Under the pieces are notes generated by a model that was not told the DNA's origin, did not search any database, and worked only from the letters and a program-made list of their open reading frames with translations. Of a stretch of 64,000 nucleotides of DNA, positions 587 through 41,116 are shown piece by piece. Position numbers and translations under genes: made by a program. Source of the stretch: Janthinobacterium lividum (GTDB lineage Bacteria; Pseudomonadota; Alphaproteobacteria; Rhizobiales; Beijerinckiaceae); NCBI GenBank assembly GCA_050920985.1, contig JBPBQY010000044.1, positions 22,123 through 86,122 on the forward strand, read 5' to 3'. Position 1 is the first letter of the stretch, and every line of letters starts with the position of its first letter.

Positions 587-1771
587 GTGGCTCCCCCGGC
601 CGTCGTGGCCATTCCGGCTCACGACGAGGCTGAGCGTATTCGAGGCTGCCTCGCCGCCCTCGCGATGCAGCGCGATCGGCACGGAATGCCGCTGGCGTCT
701 GGCAGCTTCTCGGTTCTGCTTCTGGCCAACAATTGCCGGGACGCGACGATCGACGTGGCCCGCGCCTTTGGCGAAGTCGCGCCCTTTCCGCTCGACGTCG
801 TCGACTGTCCTCTGCCCCCATCGGAGGCGCATGCCGGCGGGGCGCGCCGGGCCGCCATGGACCGCGCGGCGGATCGGCTTGAGGCGGATGGCGCGCGGGA
901 TGGCGTGATCCTGACCACCGATGCCGACAGCCGGGCCCAGCCGACCTGGGTTGCCGCGACGTTGGCGGGATTTACGCCCGGGGTCGACGCCGTGGCGGGC
1001 TACATCGACGCCGACGCGGAGGAATATCTGGCGCTCGGCAGTGGGTTCCTGCACCGCGGGCGTCTCGAAGACCGGTACCTGTCGCGCGTCGCCGAACTCT
1101 ATGCACTGCTCGACCCTCGCCGTCACGATCCCTGGCCCAATCACCGCGTTCATTCCGGAGCGGCGATCGCAGTGACCCTCTCGGCCTACCGCGCCATCGG
1201 GGGCCTTCCGGTGCGTGCGCTCGGCGAGGACAGCGCTCTGGCGCAGGTTCTCGATGAGGCCGGTTTTCTGATCCGCCACAGCATGGACGCCGTGGTGACG
1301 ACATCCTGCCGGTTCGATAGCCGGGCGCCCGGCGGCGCCGGTGACACGATGCGGGCCCGGCACGAGAATCTCGAAGCTCCCTGCGACGGCGATCTCGAAC
1401 CTGCCGATAGGCTGTTCCGTCGGGCCCGGGCTCGGGGATCGCTGCGCCGCCTCCACGCCTCGGCGCAACTCGGCGACGATCTGTCCTGGCGCCGTCGGCT
1501 CGGGCTCGACCGAGGCGAGGCCGCGGCTCTCGCGGTCGCGGCGGCGGACTTACCTTTTGCGCGGCTGTGGCGTCAGATCGAAGCCAAGAGCCTGTCTCTC
1601 CAGCTAGGAGCACCGCTTCGACCCTCCGATCTGTCGCGGCAGATCGAGGCCATCGAGCGGCTGCTCGGGCGCTTGAAGCGGCTCACGCCGCAGCGGTCAA
1701 CAGGTCCAATCGATATTCAGGCTCTCGCCGAGCCGCGGCCGGACGCCATCGCGGTGCCACTGCCGCGATGA
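587..1771 (+). CDS. Glycosyltransferase family 2
   Basis: VVAIPAHDEAERI, LANNC.D.T, DxD motif LTTDADS, GGLP...GED, TTSCR; GTG start at 587 chosen inside ORF 410..1771. Confidence 0.85.
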   Translation: MAPPAVVAIPAHDEAERIRGCLAALAMQRDRHGMPLASGSFSVLLLANNCRDATIDVARAFGEVAPFPLDVVDCPLPPSEAHAGGARRAAMDRAADRLEADGARDGVILTTDADSRAQPTWVAATLAGFTPGVDAVAGYIDADAEEYLALGSGFLHRGRLEDRYLSRVAELYALLDPRRHDPWPNHRVHSGAAIAVTLSAYRAIGGLPVRALGEDSALAQVLDEAGFLIRHSMDAVVTTSCRFDSRAPGGAGDTMRARHENLEAPCDGDLEPADRLFRRARARGSLRRLHASAQLGDDLSWRRRLGLDRGEAAALAVAAADLPFARLWRQIEAKSLSLQLGAPLRPSDLSRQIEAIERLLGRLKRLTPQRSTGPIDIQALAEPRPDAIAVPLPR

Positions 1772-26373: not shown

Positions 26374-26454
26374 GGCGAATTCGACAGCAAGGGGCGGAGT
26401 GCTGGCGTTGCGTGACGGCGTAGAACGGGTGCGAGGATGAAGGGAGCACCCGCC

Positions 26455-27531
26455 ATGGACGCCATCGTGACCTTGAAGGCCGAGACGCCTGAGATCGACG
26501 CCCGGCGCTGGGCCGCGCTCTCGGCGCGCGATGCCGATGCGGACGGTACTTTCGTCTATTCGGTCCGCACCACCGGCGTGTTCTGCCGACCTTCCTGCCC
26601 CTCGCGGCGGGCGCGGCGCGAGAACGTCCAGTTTCATGCCGATGCCGCGGCAGCCCGCGCGGCGGGGTTCCGGCCCTGTCTGCGCTGCCGGCCGGAGGCT
26701 GCGGGGCTCGACGAGCGCCGGGCCGTGCTGATCGACCGGGCCTGCCGGACCATCGAAGCCGCTGAGGACGAGCCCGATCTCGACGCGCTGGCGCGCGGGG
26801 CCGGTCTCAGCCGCTTCCACTTTCACCGGCTGTTCAAGGCCGAACTCGGCGTGACGCCGAAAGCCTATGCGGCGGCGCATCGGGCGGCCCGCACTGCGGC
26901 GGCGTTGGCCGAAGCCCCGACCGTGACGGCGGCGCTGTACGACGGCGGTTTCGGCTCGAGCGGCACCTTCTATGCCGCCGCACCGGCCCGCCTCGGCATG
27001 ACGCCCACGGCCCGGCGACGCGGCGGGCCGGGAGAGCGCATCCGCTTCGCGCTCGGCCAATGCTCGCTCGGCGCCATCCTGGTGGCGGCGACCGAGCGTG
27101 GCATCGCCGCCATCACCCTGGGCGACGATCCCGAGGCGCTCCTCACCGACCTGCAGGACCGTTTTCCCGCAGCCGAACTCGTCGGAAACGATGCGGATTT
27201 CGAGGCCATGGTGGCGCGCGTCGTCGGCTTCGTCGAAGCCCCGCGCCAGGGCCTCGACCTGCCGCTCGACATCCGCGGAACGGCCTTTCAGGAGCGGGTC
27301 TGGCAAGTGCTGCGGTCGATCCCCGCCGGGCAAACCCTGAGCTACGCCGAAGTTGCGGAGCGCCTGGGTGACCTCAAAGCCGTGCGCGCGGTGGCGGGCG
27401 CCTGTGCCGCAAACGCCATCGCGGTGGCGATCCCCTGTCATCGCGTGGTGCGAACCGGCGGCGGCCTTTCGGGCTACCGCTGGGGCGTCGAACGGAAGCG
27501 GGCGCTGTTGGAGCGGGAAGCCGGCGGCTGA
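26455..27531 (+). CDS. ada: Bifunctional Ada regulator / O6-methylguanine-DNA methyltransferase
   Basis: TTGVFCRPSCPSR, GFRPC.RC, AraC HTH, GTAFQ..VW, PCHRVV, Y.WG..RK. Confidence 0.95.
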   Translation: MDAIVTLKAETPEIDARRWAALSARDADADGTFVYSVRTTGVFCRPSCPSRRARRENVQFHADAAAARAAGFRPCLRCRPEAAGLDERRAVLIDRACRTIEAAEDEPDLDALARGAGLSRFHFHRLFKAELGVTPKAYAAAHRAARTAAALAEAPTVTAALYDGGFGSSGTFYAAAPARLGMTPTARRRGGPGERIRFALGQCSLGAILVAATERGIAAITLGDDPEALLTDLQDRFPAAELVGNDADFEAMVARVVGFVEAPRQGLDLPLDIRGTAFQERVWQVLRSIPAGQTLSYAEVAERLGDLKAVRAVAGACAANAIAVAIPCHRVVRTGGGLSGYRWGVERKRALLEREAGG

Positions 27532-27574
27532 TCGGCGTTTGAGACGCGGCGATGTCCATCGCCCGAGATGCGTT

Positions 27575-28633
27575 TCACTCCATCACGGGCGCCAGCTTCT
27601 GCACGGCTTCGACCTCGTCGCCGAGCCAAGCATTGGTCTTGGCGGTGCCGTCGAATGTCGAACTCGTCTTGAAAAGCTCGTACTTGCCTTCGGTCGCGTA
27701 GGGCCTCGAGCGCGACAGCAGTTCCGCCACGGTGTCCTTGTCCATCGGCTTGAAGGTCTCGACCGCCTTGAAGGCCTGATCGAGGTCCGCCTGTCGCTCG
27801 ATGCCGGTGATCACGACCGAGGTCGGCAGGTTCAGGCTGTAGTGGAGATATTCGATCGGCTGGATCGGCGCGCCGCTCTTCAGCAGCACCGAATCCGCGA
27901 AACTCTTCATGCCGAGGACGCCGATGCCATGTGCCACCAAATAGGGCACGACGAGATGCGCGAAGGAGCGGAAATGCGCGTCCATGACGTTGAGCGGCAT
28001 CTGCACGGCATCGAAGTGAAAGCCGCGCTCCGCCGCGACGTCGAGCATCTGCAGGTGGATCCGGGGATCCTTGTGGCCCGTGAAGCCGATGTGGCGGATC
28101 TTGCCGGCCTTCTGCGCTTCGACGAAGGCCTCCATGGCGCCACCCTCGCCGAAGATGCGGTCCGGATCGTCGTAGCGCAGGATCTCGTGATGCTGGACGA
28201 GGTCGATGCGGTCGGTGCGCATCCGCTTCAACGACGTGTCGATCTGGTCGGCGGCTTCGGTCTTCGACCGGCCGTCCATCTTCGACATGAGATAGACCTT
28301 GTCGCGATAGCCGCCCTGGTCGAGCGCCACGCCCATCCGCAATTCGGAACGGCCCTCGTTGTAGTCCCAGCAATTGTCGAGAAAGGTGATGCCGCGGTCG
28401 ATAGCCTGATGGATCAGCTTCACCGAGTCGTCGTCGCTGAGCACCTTCTTGCCGATGTGGAAACCACCGAGGCCGATGGCCGAGACGGTTTCTCCTGTCC
28501 GCCCCAGCTTGCGATAGAGCATCTCGCCACGCTTTTCGCCAGGATGGGCCACGAAGGGCAGGTCGGCCGGATCGACGGGGCGATTCAGCCCCTGCGGAAG
28601 GGCGGGGGGCAGGGTGGCGGCATCGTTCGGCAT
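27575..28633 (-). CDS. Aldo/keto reductase family oxidoreductase
   Basis: GLGG, GITFLDNCWDY, SK, SL.RM.TD.IDL.QHH, GKIRHIG.TGH, QMP.N, GMK. Confidence 0.92.
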   Translation of the reverse strand: MPNDAATLPPALPQGLNRPVDPADLPFVAHPGEKRGEMLYRKLGRTGETVSAIGLGGFHIGKKVLSDDDSVKLIHQAIDRGITFLDNCWDYNEGRSELRMGVALDQGGYRDKVYLMSKMDGRSKTEAADQIDTSLKRMRTDRIDLVQHHEILRYDDPDRIFGEGGAMEAFVEAQKAGKIRHIGFTGHKDPRIHLQMLDVAAERGFHFDAVQMPLNVMDAHFRSFAHLVVPYLVAHGIGVLGMKSFADSVLLKSGAPIQPIEYLHYSLNLPTSVVITGIERQADLDQAFKAVETFKPMDKDTVAELLSRSRPYATEGKYELFKTSSTFDGTAKTNAWLGDEVEAVQKLAPVME

Positions 28634-28758
28634 GGGGCATCCTTTCGGCAAAGCGGGAACCGCGGCGAGCGGCCGCGACCCTCGGCCTTATGCCGGGGAC
28701 CCCGCGCTGCCGGTCAACGTTGTCGAACCGTGAAGGTTGAGGGACGTCGGAGTCGCGG

Positions 28759-30057
28759 TTGGACATTCATCTCGATCCGCTCGGCGGATGGTCGGGCGAC
28801 ATGTTCGCCGCGGCCTTGCTCGATGCCTTCCCGGAGCACTGGGCCGCGGTCGAGCGCGCCGTCGCAGCGCTTGAACTCGGTCCGGCGTCTGCCATCCGCC
28901 TCGTCGCCCATCGCGACGCCGCCGGGCTGACGGGCCGGCGGTTCCTCGTCGCTGCCGAAGAGCCGAGCCACCATGATCATTCCGGCGAGGCGCATCATCA
29001 CCCTCATGATCACGACCATCCTCATCACCACGGCGAGACGGAGCATCGCCATGCCCACCGCGCCTGGTCGTCGATCCGCGCCCTGATCGAGGAGGCATCC
29101 CTCGACGCGCGGGTGAAGCGCGAGGCCGTGGCGATCTTCACGGGGCTTGCCGAAGCCGAGGGCCAGGTGCATGGCGTGCCGCCCGAGGCCGTCGCGTTCC
29201 ACGAGGTCGGTGCGGTCGATTCCATCGTCGATATCGTGGCGGCGGCGCAGCTTATCGCCCTCGTCGACGCCCGGCGCTGGACGGCCTCGCCTCTGCCGCT
29301 CGGGTCCGGCCGCGTGAGAACGGCGCATGGGATTCTTCCGGTTCCGGCGCCCGCCACTGCGCTCCTGCTGCGGGGCCTCGACACGATCGACGACGGCATC
29401 CCGGGCGAGCGTGTGACCCCGACCGGCGCCGCAGTGGCCCGTCATCTGCTTTTCGGCATCAACGGGGGCGTGCCCGGCCCGCGGCGCCTGGAACGCAGCG
29501 GCACCGGGTTCGGCACGCGCGAGATGACCGGTATCTCGAACTGCCTGCGCGTCCTCGCCTTCGAGCCCGCCGCACGCGCGGAGGCCGCTGGTCCGTTCGC
29601 CCACCGCGAGCTCGGCGTCGTCACCTTCGAAGTCGATGACCTGTCGGCCGAAGACCTCGCCAATGGACTCGACCATATCCGGGCCATGCCGGGCATCCAC
29701 GACGTCGTGCAATCGGTCGTCTTCGGCAAGAAGGGCCGGGTCGCCACGCAGGTCCAGGTGCTGGTGGCGCCGGACCGGCTCGACGACGCGATCCGTCTTT
29801 GCTTCGCCGAGACGACGACGATCGGGTTGCGTTTTCACAAGGTCCAGGGCGCCGCTTTGCCCCGTGGCTTCGACAAAGTCATCGTCGATGGCCACGAGGT
29901 ACGCACCAAACACGTGACGCGACCCGACGGCAGCCGTACCGCCAAGGCCGAAGCTTCCGATGTCTCGGCCGAGCCCGGCCATGCGTCGCGGCTGCGTCTT
30001 CGCCGAGATGCCGAGGCTCTCGCCCTGGCGCGCCTCGACGAGCAGGAGCCGCGCTGA
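28759..30057 (+). CDS. larC: Nickel-pincer cofactor nickel chelatase LarC
   Basis: GWSGDM..AALLD, His-rich Ni-storage segment, FHEVGAVDSIVDIV, HG.LPVPAPAT, VTPTGAA, GKKGR, ETTTIG.R. Confidence 0.92.
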   Translation: MDIHLDPLGGWSGDMFAAALLDAFPEHWAAVERAVAALELGPASAIRLVAHRDAAGLTGRRFLVAAEEPSHHDHSGEAHHHPHDHDHPHHHGETEHRHAHRAWSSIRALIEEASLDARVKREAVAIFTGLAEAEGQVHGVPPEAVAFHEVGAVDSIVDIVAAAQLIALVDARRWTASPLPLGSGRVRTAHGILPVPAPATALLLRGLDTIDDGIPGERVTPTGAAVARHLLFGINGGVPGPRRLERSGTGFGTREMTGISNCLRVLAFEPAARAEAAGPFAHRELGVVTFEVDDLSAEDLANGLDHIRAMPGIHDVVQSVVFGKKGRVATQVQVLVAPDRLDDAIRLCFAETTTIGLRFHKVQGAALPRGFDKVIVDGHEVRTKHVTRPDGSRTAKAEASDVSAEPGHASRLRLRRDAEALALARLDEQEPR

Positions 30058-30887
30058 TGGAGGATGAAACCACTAACGCGAGCCATCGCTTGGCCGCAGC
30101 TCTCGCCACGATCGATCGCGGCATCGCGGTCGCGGTCAGTGGTGGTATCGACAGCCTGACGCTCGCCACGGCGGCGCACGAAGCACGCTGTGATGTCGAG
30201 ATGTTCCATGCCGTGTCGGCGGCCGTACCTGGCGACGCCACGGCGCGGGTCGAGCGACTGGCCGCCGAGCGAGGCTGGCGTCTCCACGTGGTCGAGGCGG
30301 GCGAGTTCGACGACGCCGACTATGTCGCCAACCCGACCAACCGCTGCTTTTTCTGCAAGACCAACCTCTACGGCACGATCGGCCGTTACACTTCCTCTCA
30401 GATGGTCTCCGGCGCCAATACGGACGATCTTGGTGAGTACCGGCCGGGGCTCGATGCCGCGCGCAACAGGGCGGTTCGCCACCCCTATCTCGAGGCGGGG
30501 ATCGACAAGCGGACCGTGCGCTCTCTGGGCCGCGCCTTCGGCCTTGGCGAGCTGAGCGAACTGCCTGCCGCGCCCTGCCTGTCCAGCCGCGTCGAGACCG
30601 GCATCGCTATCCGGCCCGAGGTGCTTCGCGCCATTCACGCGATCGAGCGCGACCTTGCGGGCGACTTTCCGCGCGGCACCATTCGATGCCGGGTGCGGGC
30701 GTCGGGAGTGGTCTTGGAGCTCGATCCCGCGACGCTTGACGCGCTCGACCCGTCGCGGCGCGCTGCCGTGGAGCATGACGTCGAAGAGCGGTTCACCGCC
30801 CTTCTGCCCTCGACGGCGCTGACCTTTTCGGCCTATCGCAACGGCTCGGCCTTTCTTCCCGGCTTCGACAAGGGACATGCGCACTGA
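30057..30887 (+). CDS. larE: ATP-dependent sulfur transferase LarE
   Basis: PP-loop VAVSGGIDS, NP.NRCFFCK, G.N.DD.G.YRPG..AA, K..VR, PAAPCLSSRV; TGATG overlap with larC. Confidence 0.9.
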   Translation: MEDETTNASHRLAAALATIDRGIAVAVSGGIDSLTLATAAHEARCDVEMFHAVSAAVPGDATARVERLAAERGWRLHVVEAGEFDDADYVANPTNRCFFCKTNLYGTIGRYTSSQMVSGANTDDLGEYRPGLDAARNRAVRHPYLEAGIDKRTVRSLGRAFGLGELSELPAAPCLSSRVETGIAIRPEVLRAIHAIERDLAGDFPRGTIRCRVRASGVVLELDPATLDALDPSRRAAVEHDVEERFTALLPSTALTFSAYRNGSAFLPGFDKGHAH

Positions 30888-31594
30888 TGGCGGAGTTCAA
30901 GCTCGACCTCGCCCGCCACGAGCGCATCGGTCTCGACGAGGCGATCTTCTGCGCTGGCAAGACGGCCGACCAAATCGGCGCCATCCTGGACGCTTATTCG
31001 GCTGGAGGCGGGTTGCTTCTCACTCGGCTCGACGCCGGCAAATTCGAGGCCCTGCCGGCTCGCCTCCGGTCCCTGCTCGACTACGAGCCGCTGTCGTGTA
31101 CCGCCATCCTGGGGGCCTCGCGACCCGCGCGAGGCGGTGCGCCCGTCGCTGTCGTGATGGCAGGGACGTCGGATCTGCCGATGGGTCGAGAGGCCTGCCG
31201 GACCCTCGCCTTCAACGGCCAGCCGCACGGTGCTTTCACCGACATCGGCGTCGCGGGGCTGTGGCGGTTGCTGGACCGGATCGAGGAGATCCGCCGTGCC
31301 CCGGTAGTGATCGTGGCAGCCGGCATGGATGCGGCCCTGGTCAGCGTCGTCGGCGGGCTCGTGCGGGCCCCCGTTGTGGCGCTGCCGACCTCCGTCGGCT
31401 ACGGCGTCGCCGAGGGCGGCACGCCGGCGCTGCATTCCGCTCTTGCGAGTTGCGCACCCGGCGTGACGGTGGTCAATATCGACAATGGCTACGGCGCCGC
31501 CTGCGCGGCTCTGCGCATCTGCAACCTCTTGGCGGGCCGCGACTCCGGAGCGTCGACGGCTGCGCCAGACGCGGCTCACGCCGTCAGTCCTTAG
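30887..31594 (+). CDS. larB: NaAD carboxylase/hydrolase LarB (PurE-like)
   Basis: D..R..R.G..EAIFC.GKT, AGTSDLP, D.GVAGLWR, AGM.AAL.SVVGG, PTS.GYG, L.SCAPGV.VVNIDNGYGAA. Confidence 0.95.
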   Translation: MAEFKLDLARHERIGLDEAIFCAGKTADQIGAILDAYSAGGGLLLTRLDAGKFEALPARLRSLLDYEPLSCTAILGASRPARGGAPVAVVMAGTSDLPMGREACRTLAFNGQPHGAFTDIGVAGLWRLLDRIEEIRRAPVVIVAAGMDAALVSVVGGLVRAPVVALPTSVGYGVAEGGTPALHSALASCAPGVTVVNIDNGYGAACAALRICNLLAGRDSGASTAAPDAAHAVSP

Positions 31595-31608
31595 GAGAGT
31601 GGGAGTTC

Positions 31609-32649
31609 ATGACGCATCGCGACGCATCGGGGCCCGATCGGCTTCGCGCCACGGTGATCAGTCTCTATGTCCTGCTCATCGGCGCCAATGTCGGCGCCTG
31701 GCTCTGGGCTTTGGCGGCCTTCCACGACCATCCGGCGCTGCTCGGCACGGCGTCGTTGGCCTATAGTTTCGGCCTGCGCCATGCTTTCGATGCCGACCAT
31801 ATCGCCGCCATCGACAATGCCACCCGCAAGCTGATGGGCGAGGGGCGGCGTCCCGTCTCCGTCGGACTGTGGTTCTCGCTCGGCCACTCGACCGTCGTGG
31901 TGGGATTGTCGCTGCTGATCGCCGCCACCACGTCGGCATTGCAAAGCCGCTTCGACGTCTTGAAAGACGTGGGCTCGCTGATCGGGACGAGCGTGTCGGT
32001 GGCCTTCCTGTTTCTGATCGCCGCCGCCAACCTCGTGGTGCTGACGGGCGTTTGGCGGACCTTTCAACAGGTTAGGCGCGGTGGTCCGCTGGTAGAGGAG
32101 GACGTGGACCGCCTCATGGCCGGGCGGGGCGTTCTGGTTCGCCTGTTCCGTCCGGTCTTCGGGATCGTCGGCCGGTCCTGGCACATGTATCCGCTCGGGC
32201 TGCTGTTCGGGCTCGGCTTCGATACGGCGACGGAGGTCGGTCTGCTCGGTATTTCGGCCACCACGGCGAGCCAGGGCCTGTCGGTCTGGACCATCATGAT
32301 CTTTCCGGCCCTGTTCACCGCCGGCATGACGCTCCTCGACACGACGGATAGCGTGCTGATGGTAGGAGCCTATGCGTGGGCCTATGCCAAGCCGCTGCGC
32401 AAGCTCTACTACAACATGACCATTACGCTGGTGTCGGTCGTGGTGGCGGTGCTGGTCGGCGGGATTGAGGCACTCAACCTCGCCGCGGACCGATTGAAGC
32501 TCGAAGGGTCGTTCTGGACCGGGATAGGGGCGCTCAACGACGACTTCGGCGTTCTAGGCCTCGTCATCGTCGGGCTCTTTGCCGTAAGTTGGGCCATTTC
32601 GGTCGCGATCTATCGGGCCCGTGGCTACGACGACGCCAAGGTGGCGTGA
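31609..32649 (+). CDS. High-affinity Ni/Co transporter (NiCoT, HoxN/HupN/NixA)
   Basis: Signature GLRHAFDADHIAAIDN, FSLGHSTVV, LFGLGFDTATE, P.LF.AGM.L.DT.D, KLYYN. Confidence 0.95.
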   Translation: MTHRDASGPDRLRATVISLYVLLIGANVGAWLWALAAFHDHPALLGTASLAYSFGLRHAFDADHIAAIDNATRKLMGEGRRPVSVGLWFSLGHSTVVVGLSLLIAATTSALQSRFDVLKDVGSLIGTSVSVAFLFLIAAANLVVLTGVWRTFQQVRRGGPLVEEDVDRLMAGRGVLVRLFRPVFGIVGRSWHMYPLGLLFGLGFDTATEVGLLGISATTASQGLSVWTIMIFPALFTAGMTLLDTTDSVLMVGAYAWAYAKPLRKLYYNMTITLVSVVVAVLVGGIEALNLAADRLKLEGSFWTGIGALNDDFGVLGLVIVGLFAVSWAISVAIYRARGYDDAKVA

Positions 32650-32831
32650 GACCTGACTTCGGAGATGACGCGCTGCGTGCTGCTGCCATCTTTTCCCGGA
32701 GTGGGGAGATGGCTCGGCAAATCCGGTACGGACAGCGCAACTTGCCGCTGGTGATCTCCCGGAATCAAAGTTCGCCTTTTCTCTTCTCCAGTGGAGGACG
32801 GGCGCTGCGACCGCTCTTCTGGCAAAGATCG

Positions 32832-33899
32832 TCAGTTCACGATCGGAATATCGGCCTCGTCGAGGACGAAAGACGCCGGGATGTTCAAGTCCCATTGTAG
32901 GCCGGTGGACAGAAAAGCCAGATTGACCTCGCCATCCAGCGCCCGAGCCGCCAGTCGCTCCACGACTTTATGGCCGAAGCCGGTACGGTGCGGTTCCGCT
33001 ACTTCCGGGCCACCGAACTCCTTCCAACTGATGTAGAAGCGCCGCATCTCGGCATCGGTGGAATCGATCGACCAGACGATCTCGACGCGACCGTCGTTGC
33101 CCGACAGCGCTCCGAACCGCGCCGCGTTGCTGGCGAGTTCATTGAAGGCCAAGCCGATATTCTGAGCCGCCTCGGGATTGAGGTAAAGATCAGGTCCCGA
33201 GATCGAGATCCGCGCGCCCGCCGTGTCCAGAACCGGACCGAGCTGCCAGCGGACCAGTTCACCCACGAGGGCGCCGTGCCAGTCACGGGCGGCCAGCAGA
33301 TCGTGCGAGGCCGCCAAGCCGCGCAGGCGCGCCGAGAACCGATGCTCGAACTCGGCCGCCGTGATGCTGTCCTTCACGGTCTGGCGCGCCATCGCCTGGA
33401 TGATGGCAAGCAGGTTCTTCGACCGATGCGTCACCTCGCGCATGAGAAGGTGCATGTGGGTCTCGCGCTGCTTGCGCGAGGTAATATCCCGCGCCACGCC
33501 GATCAGCTCCGATCCCGATCCGGCCGGATAACGCCTGCCCTGCAGAAGCATCCAGCGCGTTGCGCCGTCCCCGGCGCGACGAATGCGGAATTCGATCAGA
33601 CAATGATCCGGCCCAGTCGGACCCGCGGCCCGGCGCAGCTCCTCGACCGTCTTCTCGGCGTCCTCTGGATCGAGCGACACCAGGAATATCTCGTTTGTAA
33701 GAGATGGGGAGCTGCTCAACCCCCAAAGCAGCGATGTCCCGCGATCCCCGAAAAAATCCTGGGTGCCGCTCTCCCAGCTCCAGATGCCGGTACATCCGAC
33801 ATCCAGGGCGAAGCGGAGACGGTCCACATGCAGACGAGGGTCTTCTGACCCGGGCTCTCGCCCGTCCGTCCCCGATGTGTCGGGCGACAGGCCACTCAT
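32832..33899 (-). CDS. PAS-containing HWE-family sensor histidine kinase
   Basis: GIWSWE; H-box E.THR.KNLLAIIQA.ARQT; NEL.SNA.RFGAL; W.E.GGP.V..P...GFG. Confidence 0.9.
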   Translation of the reverse strand: MSGLSPDTSGTDGREPGSEDPRLHVDRLRFALDVGCTGIWSWESGTQDFFGDRGTSLLWGLSSSPSLTNEIFLVSLDPEDAEKTVEELRRAAGPTGPDHCLIEFRIRRAGDGATRWMLLQGRRYPAGSGSELIGVARDITSRKQRETHMHLLMREVTHRSKNLLAIIQAMARQTVKDSITAAEFEHRFSARLRGLAASHDLLAARDWHGALVGELVRWQLGPVLDTAGARISISGPDLYLNPEAAQNIGLAFNELASNAARFGALSGNDGRVEIVWSIDSTDAEMRRFYISWKEFGGPEVAEPHRTGFGHKVVERLAARALDGEVNLAFLSTGLQWDLNIPASFVLDEADIPIVN

Positions 33900-34164
33900 G
33901 ACACGCCCTCTTCCGACACGGACGAACTCGAAAGGGCGTTAATGAATGCGAGGCCGACCCGATCGTCTCGATCAATCATTCGCGGAACTCGCACTGTCAC
34001 CCTACGCGGGGAGAAGCCCGTGCCGATCCCTCCGAAGTCCGCTTGGCCAGAAGCCAAAGCCGAACCCGAGTGGTCTGAAGGTGCGCGGCGCTTCGGTTCG
34101 AGTGAACGTCACACCGAGCGCTAGGTTCCGCCGCGCGACAACGGTGTGAGGTTGAGTATGAAGC

Positions 34165-34803
34165 TCAGCTGGCCATCGGCAGGAACATGTTCTTCAGCTT
34201 CTTGACCCGGGTCGCGAAGGCGTGGCGCCGCTGTTCGTTGGCGACCACATCCGCGCCCGTCACCCAATTGAGCTGAATGGCGCGGCGCTGCCCCTTGAAG
34301 GTCTTGTGCCCGTGCCAGGAATTATCGGACCGGCGAAACACCAGGAGCGTGCCGCCGTTGGGCGACACCTCGGCCACGGGATCGTCGAGGCTCTCGTTCG
34401 ACCGTAGCAGGCGCAGGCGTCCGCCTTCTTCTTCCCAGCCTTCGTTCAGGTAGAGCAGGACCGTGATGATCTTGGTCTTGGAATCCGTGTGGATATGGCC
34501 GTCCCGGTCCGATACGAAGCCGCGCACCGTGTACATGGTAGGCCGCCCGGTGAGGTCGATGTCGAACTTCTTTTCGACGGCGGCGCGGAAAGCCGGACCT
34601 TCCATCTCTTCCATCAGCGCCTTGAAGCGGCCCTTGATCGACAGTTCGGCCGGGGGATGCGAGCCGGGGCCGGGAATGCGCGGGAAGTCCGCGATCACGG
34701 GCTTGAACTCCACGGGCCGGATGAAATTCTCGACGATGGTGAAGTCGAACGGGTCGCGGGTCAGCGGTGTGGCGTCGAAGGCAGCAAGGTCGAGGATGGT
34801 CAC
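34165..34803 (-). CDS. 2OG-Fe(II) oxygenase family protein
   Basis: HxD motif IHTDSK, LLYLN..W...GG.LRL, distal SWHGH, R..IQLNW. Confidence 0.85.
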   Translation of the reverse strand: MTILDLAAFDATPLTRDPFDFTIVENFIRPVEFKPVIADFPRIPGPGSHPPAELSIKGRFKALMEEMEGPAFRAAVEKKFDIDLTGRPTMYTVRGFVSDRDGHIHTDSKTKIITVLLYLNEGWEEEGGRLRLLRSNESLDDPVAEVSPNGGTLLVFRRSDNSWHGHKTFKGQRRAIQLNWVTGADVVANEQRRHAFATRVKKLKNMFLPMAS

Positions 34804-35067
34804 AGAGGTCTCCGGGATCGAAGGACGCGCCGCGCCTCAAGGGCGGGGCCCATTTTTCTTCGCGGACCATGGCCGAACCGGGGCGTGAAGGCAACGCGGC
34901 GCAGGACACAGGGGACGCGTCACGAAGCGCGGGAGCTGCGACAGGCCTCGTAGGGCGGCTGCACCGCATTTCCCCGGGGTCACGATTGACAACCCCAGGA
35001 TCCCTCTCGCACAGTCCATCAACGGCTTCTGTCAATGCAAGCTGCAAGACTCTCGGGAGGTCGTCAG

Positions 35068-36711
35068 ATGAGTGAGGCCGCTGCTCGCCAGCCCGACCCT
35101 GCGCCGATTCTCGAGATGCGCAACATTTCGAAGACGTTCCCGGGCGTCAAAGCGCTGTCCAACGTCAGTCTCACCATCTACCCGGGTGAGGTCCACGCCC
35201 TCATGGGCGAGAACGGCGCCGGCAAGTCCACCCTGATGAAGACCCTGTCGGGCGCCTACCAGGCCGACCCGGGCGGCGAGATCCGTGTCGGCGGCGTGCA
35301 GCTGAGGGCCAGCGGTCCCATCGAGGCGCGCGCGGCCGGCGTCTCCATCATCTACCAGGAGCTGGCGCTGTCGCCGAACCTGACGGTGGCGGAAAACATC
35401 TACCTCAACCGTGAGCCCCGCCGCTTTGGCCTCATCGACCGCAGCGCCATGCTGAAGGGGTCGGAAGGCGTGTTGCGGCGCCTCGGCGCGAGTTTCACGC
35501 CCGGCACGCTGGTCGGCTCGCTGTCCATCGCCGAGCAGCAGATGGTCGAGATCGCGCGCGCGGTCCACGCCAATTCGCGCATCCTCGTCATGGACGAGCC
35601 CACGACCGCACTGTCGTCGCGCGAGTCCGAGAAGCTCTTCGACATCGTGCGCCAGCTTCGGCGGGACGGGCTCGCGATCATCTACATCTCGCACCGGATG
35701 GCGGAGGTCTACGAACTCTCCGACCGCGTCTCCGTGCTGCGCGACGGGACGTATGTCGGGACGATCATGCGCGACGAGATGACGCCCGAGATCGTGGTGA
35801 AGATGATGGTCGGGCGCGACCTGTCGTCCTTCTACAAGAAGAGCCATCGCTTCCAGCCCGATGCCGCGCCGGTCCTCGAGGTGCGCGGCATCGGCGACGG
35901 CCGGCGCGTTCACGACGTCTCCTTCGACCTGCATCCGGGCGAAGTGCTGGGCCTCGCCGGCCTTGTCGGGGCGGGGCGGACCGAGATGGCCCGCATGCTC
36001 TTCGGCGCCGATCCGCGCACCACGGGCGAAATCCGCCTCGCCGGCAAAACCGTGCAGATCCGCTCGCCGCAGGACGCCATCGACGTCGGCCTCGTCTACC
36101 TCACCGAGGACCGCAAGGCCGAGGGCGTCCTGCTCGACATGTCGGCCAAGGACAACATCAACCTCATGGTCTTCAGCAAGGATGCCAGGGCTGGCGTCCT
36201 CGACCTCGGACAGGCGCTGCGGCGCTGCAAGGACGCCATCGGGGCGATGAAGATCCGGGTCGCGGGCCCCGACATCACGGTGGGGTCGCTATCCGGGGGC
36301 AACCAGCAGAAATGCCTGCTGTCGCGCCTGCTCGAGACGCGGCCCATGGTGCTCATCCTCGACGAGCCGACCCGCGGCGTCGATGTCGGCGCCAAATCCG
36401 AAATCTACCGGATTATCGACGATCTCGCCAAACAGGGTGCCGGCATCCTGGTGATCTCCTCCGAGCTTGCCGAGGTGGTGGGCGTCTCCGATCGCGTCAT
36501 CGTCATGCGCGAGGGGCACCTCGAAGGCGAAGTGTCGGGCGACGCCATCGACCAGGAGAACATCATCGCGCTCGCCACGGCGGCGAAACGCGCCGGTCCC
36601 GGAGACGACGATGCGGCCGGTCGCGCCAGCCTGGAGCTGGGCGACCGGGCGCCGGCCGGCCAGGTCGCGGTCGGCCATAGCCCTGGCGCCTCGCGGCCGA
36701 CCGCGCATTGA
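35068..36711 (+). CDS. Monosaccharide ABC transporter ATP-binding protein (RbsA-like, two NBDs)
   Basis: [43 protein letters not shown]. Confidence 0.95.
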
Positions 36712-37901: not shown

Positions 37902-38846
37902 ATGCTCAAGTCCATCCTCCTCGCCGGCGCCGCAGTGGCGCTCCTCGCGGGTAGCGCCCAAGCCAAGGAACTGAAGTCGATCGGCGTGTCGCTCGGCTCG
38001 CTCGGCAATCCCTTCTTCCAGGCCCTGGCCAAGGGGGCGGAATTCGAGGCCAAGAAGACCAACCCGAACGTCAAGCTGTTGGTGTTCGGCTACGAGTACG
38101 ATCTCGGCAAGCAGGTGCAGCAGATCGACAATTTCATCGCTGCCGGCGTCGATCTAATCCTGCTGAACCCCGGTGACCCCAAGGCCCTGAAGCCCGCCAT
38201 CGAGAAGGCGCAGAAAGCCGGCATCAAGGTCGTGGCGGTCGACACCTATGCGGATGGCGCCGACGCGGCCGTCACCACCGACAACGTCCAGGCCGGCCAG
38301 ATCGCCTGCCAGTTCTTCATCGACAAGCTCGGGGGCAAGGGCAACGTCATCATCGAGAACGGGCCGCATGTGTCCTCGGTGATCGACCGCGTCGACGGCT
38401 GCACGGCGGCGATCGCCAAGGCGCCCGGCATGAAGCTCCTGTCCTCCGACCAGGACGGCAAGGGCCAGCGCGACGCCGGCCTCAACGTGATGAAGAGCCT
38501 GCTGACCCGCTTCCCCGACGTTCAGGCCATCTTCGCCATCAACGATCCCCAGGCGCTGGGCTCAGATCTCGCGGCCAAGCAGCTCAACCGCACCGGGATC
38601 ATCATCACCTCGGTGGATGGTGCGCCGGACATCGAAGCGGCCCTGAAGGATCCGAAGTCGCCCGCCATTCAGGCATCGTCGAGCCAGGACCCCTATACGC
38701 TGGCCCGGAAGGGCGTCGACATCGGCGTCGACCTGCTGAATGGCAAGGAGCCGGCTCAGAAGGTCACCCTGGTCCCCTCGACCCTCGTGACCCGCGACAA
38801 CGTCAAGGACTACAAGGGCTGGCAGGCCGACCGCACCGGCGGCTGA
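37902..38846 (+). CDS. Monosaccharide ABC transporter substrate-binding protein (RbsB-like)
   Basis: Signal peptide; NPFF, V..VD, TDN.QAG, R..G, IFA.ND, DG. Confidence 0.93.
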   Translation: MLKSILLAGAAVALLAGSAQAKELKSIGVSLGSLGNPFFQALAKGAEFEAKKTNPNVKLLVFGYEYDLGKQVQQIDNFIAAGVDLILLNPGDPKALKPAIEKAQKAGIKVVAVDTYADGADAAVTTDNVQAGQIACQFFIDKLGGKGNVIIENGPHVSSVIDRVDGCTAAIAKAPGMKLLSSDQDGKGQRDAGLNVMKSLLTRFPDVQAIFAINDPQALGSDLAAKQLNRTGIIITSVDGAPDIEAALKDPKSPAIQASSSQDPYTLARKGVDIGVDLLNGKEPAQKVTLVPSTLVTRDNVKDYKGWQADRTGG

Positions 38847-38914: not shown

Positions 38915-40909
38915 TCAGCCCCGGCGACTAAAGCTCTGGGCTACCGCCAAGCCGCGGCGCATATCGGCCGTGCCGATCTCTGGACCGGTCGCCGAGACCG
39001 CGGCGCCGAAGGCACGGCCGAAGTCCGAGGTCTGGTCCATCGCCAGCCTGCCGGCTGCAATATCGGCATCGAAGCCTGTGAGCTCGCTGCCGGCCCCGGT
39101 TCCGTCGAGCGCCAACGCCATCGCCAGCATGGCGAAGCTACCCGGCGCTGCCCGCACGAGACGCGGATCCGCGCGCGCCACTCGATAGGCATTGACGAAG
39201 CGCTTAATGCTGCGCGGCGTGCCGCCCGTGAAGGGGGCCAACCGCTTGACCAGTTCCGTCTCGAAGGGCTGCAGCGGTCGGTCGAGCGCCGACTGCGACG
39301 GATCGACCGGGAGGGGCGACAGGGATCCGACGACGCGCCGATCGAGAAGCCGCTCGGCTAATTCGGCCGGGTCGGGCGCGGCAGGGCCGAGGTCGTAGGA
39401 CAGTTGCACGGCGCGATCGAGCCGGGCTGCCGCCAGGGCAGGATCGAACTCGCTCAGCGCCGCGCCGATCTGGTCGCGCTCCAGTGTCACCAGCATGACG
39501 AATCCGTCCCGCGCCAGCAGGCGGTGGGCCGTTGACAGGAAAGCCGCTGCCTCGGCCGGCGCCAGCCGGTCGAGACCGTCGATGGCGAAGAGCATGCGCT
39601 CGGGCCCGCCACCAGATTCCGCGGCCATGCCCTGGCTCAGCTTGGCGAAGAAGCCTTCCGCCGCCGCCTCAGGCGGGCGAGCCAGGCCGAAAAGCTCACG
39701 CGCCAGCGCCGCGCCGTGGTCCGACAGGCTGGAGCCCTGGCGCGATTCGGCGCGACGGTGCGCCTCCTCGGCGCCGTGGCCGGCGGTTTCCGCCTCTCGG
39801 GCCAGCGTATCAACGCGCCGTGTTTGATGCGCCAGCAGCCCGTCGAGGTCTCGCCGCCGTTCGGCCAGATCGCCCTTGAGCAGTGCGATGCCCCGGAAGA
39901 TGGGCTCGAGGAAGCGGGCCGCCCGCACTACGGCGGCGAGCAACGCCAGCGCCGCCAGGGCCAACGCGATGCGGCTCGCCGGCTGCAGCAGATCGAGATG
40001 ACCACGAGCCCAATCGGTGACGGCGGCGAAGTGGTCGCCGAAGCCCGCGAGCCAACGCGTCATGGCGTCGGGATCGTCGGCGCCGGAACCCGCCGCCCAG
40101 CCCAGCACGCCGAGCAGGACGGCGAGGACCAGCAGCGTGCCCTGGCCCTTGAAGCCCCACAGAGCCCGCAGCGCGAGGCCGAGCTTCGAGCCGCCGCCGC
40201 TCGTCTCGGCCCCGTCCCGTACCAGCTCCTTGAAGGTCCGGACGGGATCGCCGGTCGGTAGGCCGAAGGCGCGGAGCCGCGCTTCGATCCGGCCACGGTT
40301 CGATCGCGCGAAACCGTCGACGCGCGAGCCCGCGCCGTCGAACAGCACCGTCTCTGTCAGCCGGGCGCGGCGGGCGCCCAGGCTGTCGAGCGTCTGGCGT
40401 TCGCTGTCGAGGCTGCGGCGGAGGGCATTGACGCGCTCTCCGGCGAGCCGAGCGGCCTCGCGCGGATCGCCGCCCGCATGGACGGCTTCCTCGGCGAGGC
40501 TGGCTTGATTTTCTGCCAATGCATCGAGCGCGGCCTCGACGAGGAGCGGTGCCGCGCCGCGGCCCGGCGCTGCGTCGATCCGGGCCAGGATCACGCGGCT
40601 TACGAAGGTGGATTGTCCGGATCCGTCCCGCGCGGCTTCGGCGAGTTGGGCGGCGCTATCGAGAATGGCACCGAGGAAATGGCTCTTGCCGGAGCCTGCC
40701 GGGCCGAAGATGCCAATGGCGAGGGGCGTCTCCGCGTGTCGGTGCAGGCCGACCTCGGCCAACAGAGCCGTGGCCGCGCGACGATCGAGATCCGTGGCTC
40801 CGGCTGCATCGGAAGCGAAGACCGGCAGGGCATCCGGGGCGCGCGGTTCAGGCCGCGGGGCCGGCTCGACGGGAGACGGCTGGTAGGACGCGATGGCGGT
40901 CGAGGTCAC
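38915..40909 (-). CDS. KAP-family P-loop NTPase with internal TM helices
   Basis: PLAIGIFGPAGSGKS, TM segments plus coiled coils, Walker B-like FAIDGLDRL, TPRSIKRFVN.YR; RBS AAGGAG before GTG 40909. Confidence 0.8.
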   Translation of the reverse strand: MTSTAIASYQPSPVEPAPRPEPRAPDALPVFASDAAGATDLDRRAATALLAEVGLHRHAETPLAIGIFGPAGSGKSHFLGAILDSAAQLAEAARDGSGQSTFVSRVILARIDAAPGRGAAPLLVEAALDALAENQASLAEEAVHAGGDPREAARLAGERVNALRRSLDSERQTLDSLGARRARLTETVLFDGAGSRVDGFARSNRGRIEARLRAFGLPTGDPVRTFKELVRDGAETSGGGSKLGLALRALWGFKGQGTLLVLAVLLGVLGWAAGSGADDPDAMTRWLAGFGDHFAAVTDWARGHLDLLQPASRIALALAALALLAAVVRAARFLEPIFRGIALLKGDLAERRRDLDGLLAHQTRRVDTLAREAETAGHGAEEAHRRAESRQGSSLSDHGAALARELFGLARPPEAAAEGFFAKLSQGMAAESGGGPERMLFAIDGLDRLAPAEAAAFLSTAHRLLARDGFVMLVTLERDQIGAALSEFDPALAAARLDRAVQLSYDLGPAAPDPAELAERLLDRRVVGSLSPLPVDPSQSALDRPLQPFETELVKRLAPFTGGTPRSIKRFVNAYRVARADPRLVRAAPGSFAMLAMALALDGTGAGSELTGFDADIAAGRLAMDQTSDFGRAFGAAVSATGPEIGTADMRRGLAVAQSFSRRG

Positions 40910-41102
40910 GAGCGGCTCCTTGAAGACACCTCGGAGCCTTAGCGCTTGAGCTTGACGCTTGTGAGGCGGGCTGTCCCCGGACCAGGGCCCTCGGTCACCT
41001 GGCTCACTCACCGGCAAGGACGCGGCCCCGCGGACCCTCGCCGGTTCAGCCGCCGCCCTCCGGTCTCGTGGCGCAGCCCTGCGATGCGCTTTCTGCTCAG
41101 AA

Positions 41103-41116
41103 GACAATCGATTGTC
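41103..41116. promoter_or_regulatory. Perfect 14-bp palindrome GACAATCGATTGTC in a divergent promoter region
   Basis: Read directly; immediately followed by a second palindrome, CACATGTG. Confidence 0.4.

Follow-up and report, generated by a model that had tools for sequence, protein, structure and literature searches.

We analysed a 64,000-nucleotide stretch of contig JBPBQY010000044.1 (assembly GCA_050920985.1, labelled Janthinobacterium lividum and placed by GTDB in the Beijerinckiaceae, Alphaproteobacteria), hereafter the window, which carries the genes for synthesis of the nickel-pincer (NPN) cofactor next to a divergently transcribed gene for an aldo-keto reductase (AKR). The genes larC, larE and larB are followed on the same strand by a nickel/cobalt permease gene, nicO, and the product of each of the four scored above the cut-off of its curated NCBIfam model (Table 1). 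TGATG is found at both the larC/larE and the larE/larB junctions, with the A common to the stop and the start codon; nicO starts 14 nt past the TAG of larB and is preceded by GGAG. The first-pass annotation of this DNA had described larC, larE and larB as TGATG-coupled, followed by a NiCoT gene, and had placed a region of roughly 125 bp between larC and the divergent AKR gene. Coordinates, family scores and junction sequences all agree with the former, and the latter proved to be exact to the base pair. The 92% identity of the AKR to that of Lichenibacterium ramalinae points to a Lichenibacterium-like host from lichens, within the Hyphomicrobiales. The G+C content of the window is about 68%, and a tblastn search indicated that the lar cluster is present in a single copy in the genome.

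Table 1. Features of the nickel-pincer locus and its surroundings; positions are those of the window.
Feature	Position	Strand	Support
AKR gene, 352 aa	27575-28633	-	PF00248, E value 1.8e-29
Divergent AKR-larC spacer, 125 bp	28634-28758	none	sequence
larC, fused LarC1+LarC2, TTG start	28759-30057	+	PF01969, E value 7e-91; TIGR00299, 185 bits (cut-off 90); NF052512, 96.4 bits (cut-off 50)
larE, ATP-dependent sulfur insertase	30057-30887	+	TIGR00268, 211 bits (cut-off 150)
larB, nicotinic acid adenine dinucleotide (NaAD) carboxylase/hydrolase	30887-31594	+	NF033503, 241.7 bits (cut-off 175)
nicO, HoxN/NixA-family nickel/cobalt permease, 346 aa	31609-32649	+	PF03824, E value 4.8e-100; TIGR00802, 414.8 bits (cut-off 333)
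Ada-type methyltransferase/AraC regulator, convergent with the AKR gene	26437-27531	+	
HWE histidine kinase	32832-33899	-	
CUT2-type monosaccharide ATP-binding cassette (ABC) transporter	ATPase 35035-36711; permease to about 37795; binding protein 37902-38846		

The products of these genes carry features of the corresponding families. By family, LarC is a cytidine triphosphate-dependent nickel cyclometallase, and it has a His-rich stretch at residues 71-100. NicO contains HAFDADH, which corresponds to the HX4DH signature of NiCoT permeases. In LarE, cysteines C97, C100 and C174 form a CXXC...C pattern of the [4Fe-4S] type and correspond to C92, C95 and C172 of the Thermotoga maritima enzyme, which is [4Fe-4S]-dependent and non-sacrificial (PMC9283937). 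Despite this pattern, the NCBIfam model matched by LarE bears the name 'sacrificial sulfur transferase'.

When the AKR was compared with all PDB sequences, the closest match was NphT (9yeb_A, E value 5.9e-25; 4.4e-17 for the next AKR). NphT is the hydride transferase of Alicyclobacillus cellulosilyticus that depends on nickel-pincer mononucleotide (NPMN) (PDB 9YEB; Semersky et al., Nat Chem 2026, PMC13524815). It binds NPMN covalently via K200, with H144 on the nickel, and retains the AKR tetrad (D47, Y52, K75 and H106); its reaction with aldoses is a disproportionation in which hydride is transferred between molecules (PMC13524815). The complete NphT sequence, recovered from the genome of A. 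cellulosilyticus, was aligned with the window AKR. The whole tetrad was found to be present, as D86, Y91, K118 and H149, respectively. T185 and H187, within the motif IG[FI]TGH, occupy the positions of T142 and the nickel ligand H144, while M242 and K243 correspond to I199 and the tether K200 (GMK versus TIK). G277 is invariant, as is NphT G248, which makes a backbone contact with the cofactor. The conservation of these residues was evaluated by aligning 42 homologues with identities as low as 34%: Y91 is present in all 42, H187, K243 and H149 in 41 each, K118 in 40, and D86 in 39, the remaining three having Glu.

The window AKR shares its overall fold and the catalytic tetrad with canonical AKRs, but it has GFTGH where these show GxSN[FW], and GMKS where they show [WY]SPL. 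As a control, we aligned the other AKRs encoded in the genome. At these positions they show a GxSN[FW]-type motif and [WYF]-S/A-P/L-L, with Ser, and once Ala, at the position of K243; the combination of GFTGH and MK occurs only in the window AKR and in one paralogue. In addition, strand 7 and helix 7 of the canonical paralogues are separated by a loop of some 40 residues that is wholly missing from the window AKR and partly from NphT. In canonical AKRs, this region helps to clamp the dinucleotide. None of the curated NCBIfam AKR models was reached by the window AKR (the top score was 40 bits, versus cut-offs of 327-550). Its AlphaFold2 model, with a predicted local distance difference test (pLDDT) value of 92 and a predicted template modelling (TM) score of 0.90, adopts the AKR triosephosphate isomerase (TIM) barrel, and Foldseek returned only AKRs (probability 1.00, TM scores 0.60-0.67) from a fold library that runs to April 2026 and predates 9YEB. 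At the C-terminus, the family conserves the motif G-[KR]-x-E-x-[YF]-K, which reads G-K-Y-E-L-F-K here; E319 and K322 are present in at least 90% of the homologues, and confidence in the modelled tail is good up to about residue 340. We considered Met38 as an alternative start of the protein and rejected it, given that residues 10-37 are conserved at the protein level in the subfamily and that a ribosome-binding site, AAGGA, precedes the ATG at 28633.

We also searched for a LarA enzyme that could use the cofactor. The first-pass annotation had found no LarA in the window, which we confirmed, and we extended the search to the whole assembly (5.70 Mb in 105 contigs, rated 98.97% complete with 2.87% contamination). 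No hit to PF09861 was obtained at E ≤ 0.01, nor to NF033504, the model for full-length LarA, at E ≤ 1, and DUF362 was likewise without a match in the assembly. Since the same PF09861 search does detect LarA in 6 of 12 related genomes that carry the AKR, including that of Lichenibacterium minor, the negative result is meaningful; the other six lack LarA. L. minor (G010) has its LarA homologue on contig C119 (14713-15318), whereas the window genome and Lichenibacterium ramalinae, whose AKR is 92% identical to that of the window, have none; therefore, the set of cofactor-using enzymes varies within the genus.

A second AKR of the His/Lys type is encoded in the assembly at positions 702-1541 (minus strand) of contig C105. 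It is 60% identical to the window AKR and shows GFTGH, TMK and the C-terminal YELFK motif, but the gene is cut at the end of the 1,541-bp contig. The G+C content of this contig is 63.7%, versus about 68% for the window. This gene may be a real paralogue and a second client of the cofactor, or it may represent contamination.

The association of the AKR with the lar genes was then evaluated in other genomes; these are related, and the counts given here are not independent events. We used the best 80 of 531 relatives, all at least 75% identical to the window AKR, and 59 of these loci had enough upstream flank. The larC, larE and larB genes adjoin the AKR gene in 37 of the 59, in two arrangements: divergent in 13, mostly from Lichenibacterium, Lichenihabitans and Lichenifustis, and co-directional (larC-larE-larB-AKR) in 24, from Methylobacterium, Beijerinckiaceae and Roseomonas. 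LarC was detected in all 12 genomes with the AKR subfamily that were searched, eight of which belong to the group with no lar gene within 8 kb of the AKR. It was also encoded in 18 out of 18 genomes tested from the sister clade described below, which makes 30 of 30 tested genomes bearing the clade. For comparison, in an even sample across the order, LarC was present in 11 of 201 genomes, and the window genome was the sole carrier of the AKR subfamily; neither LarC nor the AKR was encoded in four genomes from the family of the window organism. Two gene orders together with strict co-occurrence with LarC at the genome level are better explained by a functional link than by genes that adjoin by chance. 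Several loci (L017, L023, L030, L039, L054), with AKRs 78-80% identical to that of the window, bear the labels Burkholderiaceae, Janthinobacterium lividum, Buchnera and Nakamurella. Their contigs, mostly from lichen-metagenome bins, look like mis-binned alphaproteobacterial DNA and not like true occurrences.

In a maximum-likelihood tree, the canonical AKRs of the genome were split from all His/Lys AKRs with support of 100/99, and the window AKR fell on the same side of this split as NphT. The core NphT clade (100/97) lies outside the large clade that contains the window subfamily (100/100). The window AKR thus resembles NphT in its AKR TIM barrel, the nickel-ligand His in T-G-H, the tether Lys at the end of strand 7 and the full D-Y-K-H tetrad, as well as in adjoining larB, larC and larE without larA and in lacking a signal peptide. 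It differs in belonging to another clade, most of whose members are exported through the twin-arginine translocation (Tat) pathway, and in being divergent from the lar genes instead of in line with them. It also has about 37 extra residues at the N-terminus and about 40 at the C-terminus, the latter with a conserved ExxK motif. The first-pass annotation had named NphT as a reported AKR-fold, NPN-dependent sugar hydride transferase, without assigning the window AKR to the same subfamily. The existence of such an enzyme is borne out (PMC13524815), but the two enzymes do not belong to one subfamily, as indicated by their low identity, their separate clades and a different C-terminal third. By sequence, the window AKR is a member of an uncharacterised branch of the NphT-type class, with some distinct features. 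The nickel-pincer AKR class was published in June 2026 from one characterised enzyme, with 427 AKRs adjoining larBCE and 798 homologues with the His/Lys motif (PMC13524815). Because hundreds of members had been predicted, the window AKR joins an already known class and does not define a novel one.

From these results, we consider it highly likely that the locus is a self-contained nickel-pincer module consisting of an importer, three biosynthetic enzymes and an NphT-type AKR client; for cofactor loading, attachment and reaction type, we infer the following scheme. On the basis of homology with characterised enzymes, NicO would import Ni2+, LarB would carboxylate and hydrolyse NaAD, LarE, with its Fe-S-type cysteine pattern, would form both thiocarboxylates, and LarC would insert nickel to yield NPMN. 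The cofactor would be loaded onto the divergent AKR, where, by analogy with NphT, it would probably be tethered to Lys243 as a thioamide, His187 completing the coordination of the nickel. Tyr91 would serve as the acid/base, together with Asp86, Lys118 and His149, and hydride would pass between alcohol or hemiacetal and carbonyl substrates via C4 of the bound pincer. The reaction, a disproportionation or a transhydrogenation, would then be redox-neutral and would need no NAD(P)H. The proposal of the first-pass annotation that the AKR is the NPN client gains support from the His/Lys motif, the tetrad, the PDB match to NphT, the lack of LarA, and the linkage and co-occurrence with the lar genes. 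We therefore regard the AKR as the very probable client of the lar operon, with a mode of action that is very probably that of NphT.

The arrangement is reminiscent of the lar locus of Lactiplantibacillus plantarum, in which larB, larC and larE and a dedicated nickel importer also lie beside a cofactor-using enzyme. However, the L. plantarum locus includes larA, whereas the window genome has no LarA and the proposed client has the AKR fold. In L. plantarum, LarC is encoded by larC1/C2 instead of a single fused gene, and LarE uses a single sacrificial Cys where the window enzyme shows the CXXC...C Fe-S pattern. The nickel transporter also differs, that of the window being a NiCoT permease. The window locus brings together nickel import, cofactor synthesis by three enzymes and the proposed client in a compact and complete module, and its host is a culturable alphaproteobacterium that lacks LarA. 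Given that close orthologues of the AKR are present in the genetically tractable genus Methylobacterium, this subfamily offers a good system in which to address the cellular role of nickel-pincer AKRs.

The N-terminal sequences bear on the cellular location of the enzyme. Most members of the large clade that holds the window subfamily start with a twin-arginine signal. A start with MERRSFLQGAALGAGLA or a similar sequence is seen in each of the 24 co-directional orthologues and in two of the 13 with divergent lar genes; the orthologues with a Tat signal are 75-82% identical to the window AKR and come from Methylobacterium, Beijerinckiaceae and some Lichenihabitans (for example, loci L011, L014, L024, L046 and L066). 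TIGR01409 was matched by the orthologues L046 and L024 and by the clade representative P0133, with 18.8-24.2 bits (cut-off 16.7) among those showing a match; the window AKR had no match to this model. The signal is missing from the window AKR, from its Lichenibacterium relatives and from the Acetobacteraceae forms, which start near the expected mature N-terminus, at the conserved segment LPPALPxGLNRPxDPADLPF that is also found in the window AKR. In the window, an in-frame stop lies 18 codons upstream of the ATG. The absence of a signal and this upstream stop therefore predict that the window AKR is cytoplasmic, like NphT.

The sister P0125-like clade (loci L142-L221), from Nostoc and other cyanobacteria, Verrucomicrobiota, Planctomycetota and Acidobacteriota, contains the nearest sequence neighbours of the subfamily (52-60% identity) and shares with it the His/Lys motif and the C-terminal ExYK. 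Many of its members bear a Tat signal, and the clade is rarely adjacent to lar genes (2 of 80 loci), whereas the window AKR has no signal and is lar-adjacent. This distribution predicts that the window AKR descends from a mostly exported lineage and lost its export signal, and that the same enzyme is periplasmic in some genera and cytoplasmic in others. As a tentative model, to which we give somewhat less than an even chance, the window AKR would be a cytoplasmic offshoot of a very large, uncharacterised branch of His/Lys AKRs that are usually periplasmic and Tat-exported, presumably as pre-loaded holo-enzymes, with the lineage of Lichenibacterium and Acetobacteraceae having lost the signal and moved the chemistry inside. 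More speculatively, the signal-less enzyme might act on imported sugars or polyols inside the cell. If the model is true, the tethered nickel-pincer would replace NAD(P)H, which is absent from the periplasm, and enable AKR hydride chemistry outside the cytoplasm. Export of His/Lys AKRs is not mentioned in PMC13524815, and this mostly Tat-exported branch, which is not discussed there, suggests a rationale for tethering a nickel cofactor instead of using NAD(P)H.

Several observations weigh against an NphT-like client. The identity with NphT is only 32% and is confined to residues 38-246 of the window AKR. The loop after strand 7 is shorter than in NphT and does not include the TWYEPF segment, so the cofactor contacts W218 and Y219 have no alignable counterpart. 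After strand 8, the window AKR retains TGIERQADLDQ, a canonical-like G-x-x-R-x-x-x-L motif that resembles the canonical adenosine-binding motif, and a dinucleotide cofactor (NPAD) would thus be possible. Moreover, lar genes are lacking within 8 kb of the AKR in 22 of the 59 loci, most of which bear the label Acetobacteraceae, and in the related genomes that encode LarA the lar genes need not serve the AKR alone. The differences in the C-terminal third, along with the extra G-[KR]-x-E-x-[YF]-K tail, would fit an AKR that uses a nickel-pincer cofactor without NphT-like intermolecular shuttling, catalysing instead an intramolecular redox reaction on a sugar or hydroxy compound, for instance its epimerisation or isomerisation, or using NPAD, covalently bound or not. 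According to PMC13524815, the sugars with which NphT was assayed are likely to be promiscuous substrates, and NPAD may be bound by some homologues, which points in the same direction. Nevertheless, we regard this variant as rather unlikely: the window AKR has all four tetrad residues, its sole acid/base Tyr among them, and shares a conserved tether Lys with NphT, and the window LarB scores as a standard equivalog, standard LarB being an enzyme that releases adenosine monophosphate.

We consider it very improbable that the AKR depends on NAD(P)H in the ordinary way and only happens to adjoin the lar operon, with the cofactor serving another client elsewhere, such as an ornithine cyclodeaminase (OCD) homologue or a protein of unknown fold. 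Two OCD/mu-crystallin homologues are indeed encoded in the genome, and PMC13524815 cites a report of an OCD that depends on NPAD; the loci without nearby lar genes could also be read in this way. However, both OCD genes are located on other contigs, away from the lar genes, and the lar linkage of the AKR recurs in two gene orders, with LarC in every clade-bearing genome tested. A plain NAD(P)H enzyme is unlikely because the canonical nicotinamide-binding S-N and S-P-L motifs are replaced by T-G-H and M-K in the window AKR, and the clamping loop is deleted. The Tat signals of the orthologues, together with the signal-less start and upstream stop of the window gene, might alternatively mean that the module is a decaying remnant whose AKR became non-functional or mislocalised after its exported ancestry. 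We find hardly any room for this explanation, given that the signal-less form is kept at 75-93% identity in many Lichenibacterium, Lichenihabitans and Acetobacteraceae loci, and that NphT itself is cytoplasmic. The catalytic and cofactor residues and the reading frame of the AKR are intact, with a G+C content at third codon positions of 0.86, and the lar genes are intact and coupled.

Regarding the substrate, the only neighbours conserved across the 80 clustered loci were larC, larE and larB, and the search for conserved-neighbour clues to the substrate yielded none beyond these genes. The other neighbours of the AKR are genus-specific: a hydrolase, an isochorismatase, a luciferase-like monooxygenase, an aldehyde dehydrogenase, a pyridoxal phosphate-dependent decarboxylase and two-component systems. 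Unlike NphT, the window AKR has no conserved neighbouring sugar genes. The monosaccharide ABC transporter, which the first-pass annotation had located about 2.4 kb downstream as a possible supplier of the substrate, starts 2,386 bp after nicO, behind two minus-strand genes encoding the HWE kinase and a 2-oxoglutarate-Fe(II) oxygenase. The distance is correct, but the proposed role in substrate supply gains no support beyond synteny within the genus, which for the transporter is limited to the two closest genomes. By analogy with NphT, sugars or polyols would be our guess for the substrate of the AKR. Just past the transporter lies an open reading frame for a KAP-family P-loop NTPase of 730 aa (38915-41107, minus strand), with no obvious tie to the lar/AKR locus.

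A search for riboswitches and other RNA elements across positions 27000-35200 gave no Rfam family at E ≤ 1, and a scan for sigma-70 promoters and terminators revealed nothing beyond the shuffled expectation, with no sigma-70 consensus in the spacer. No obvious regulator gene lies close to the palindrome CAACGTTG that is present in the AKR-larC spacer. This palindrome is located at 28715-28722, inside GGTCAACGTTGTCG, and is kept in five of the six aligned spacers of the closest relatives, while the flanking spacer is variable. The palindrome may be an operator common to both divergent promoters. The spacer also holds the GGAG of larC.

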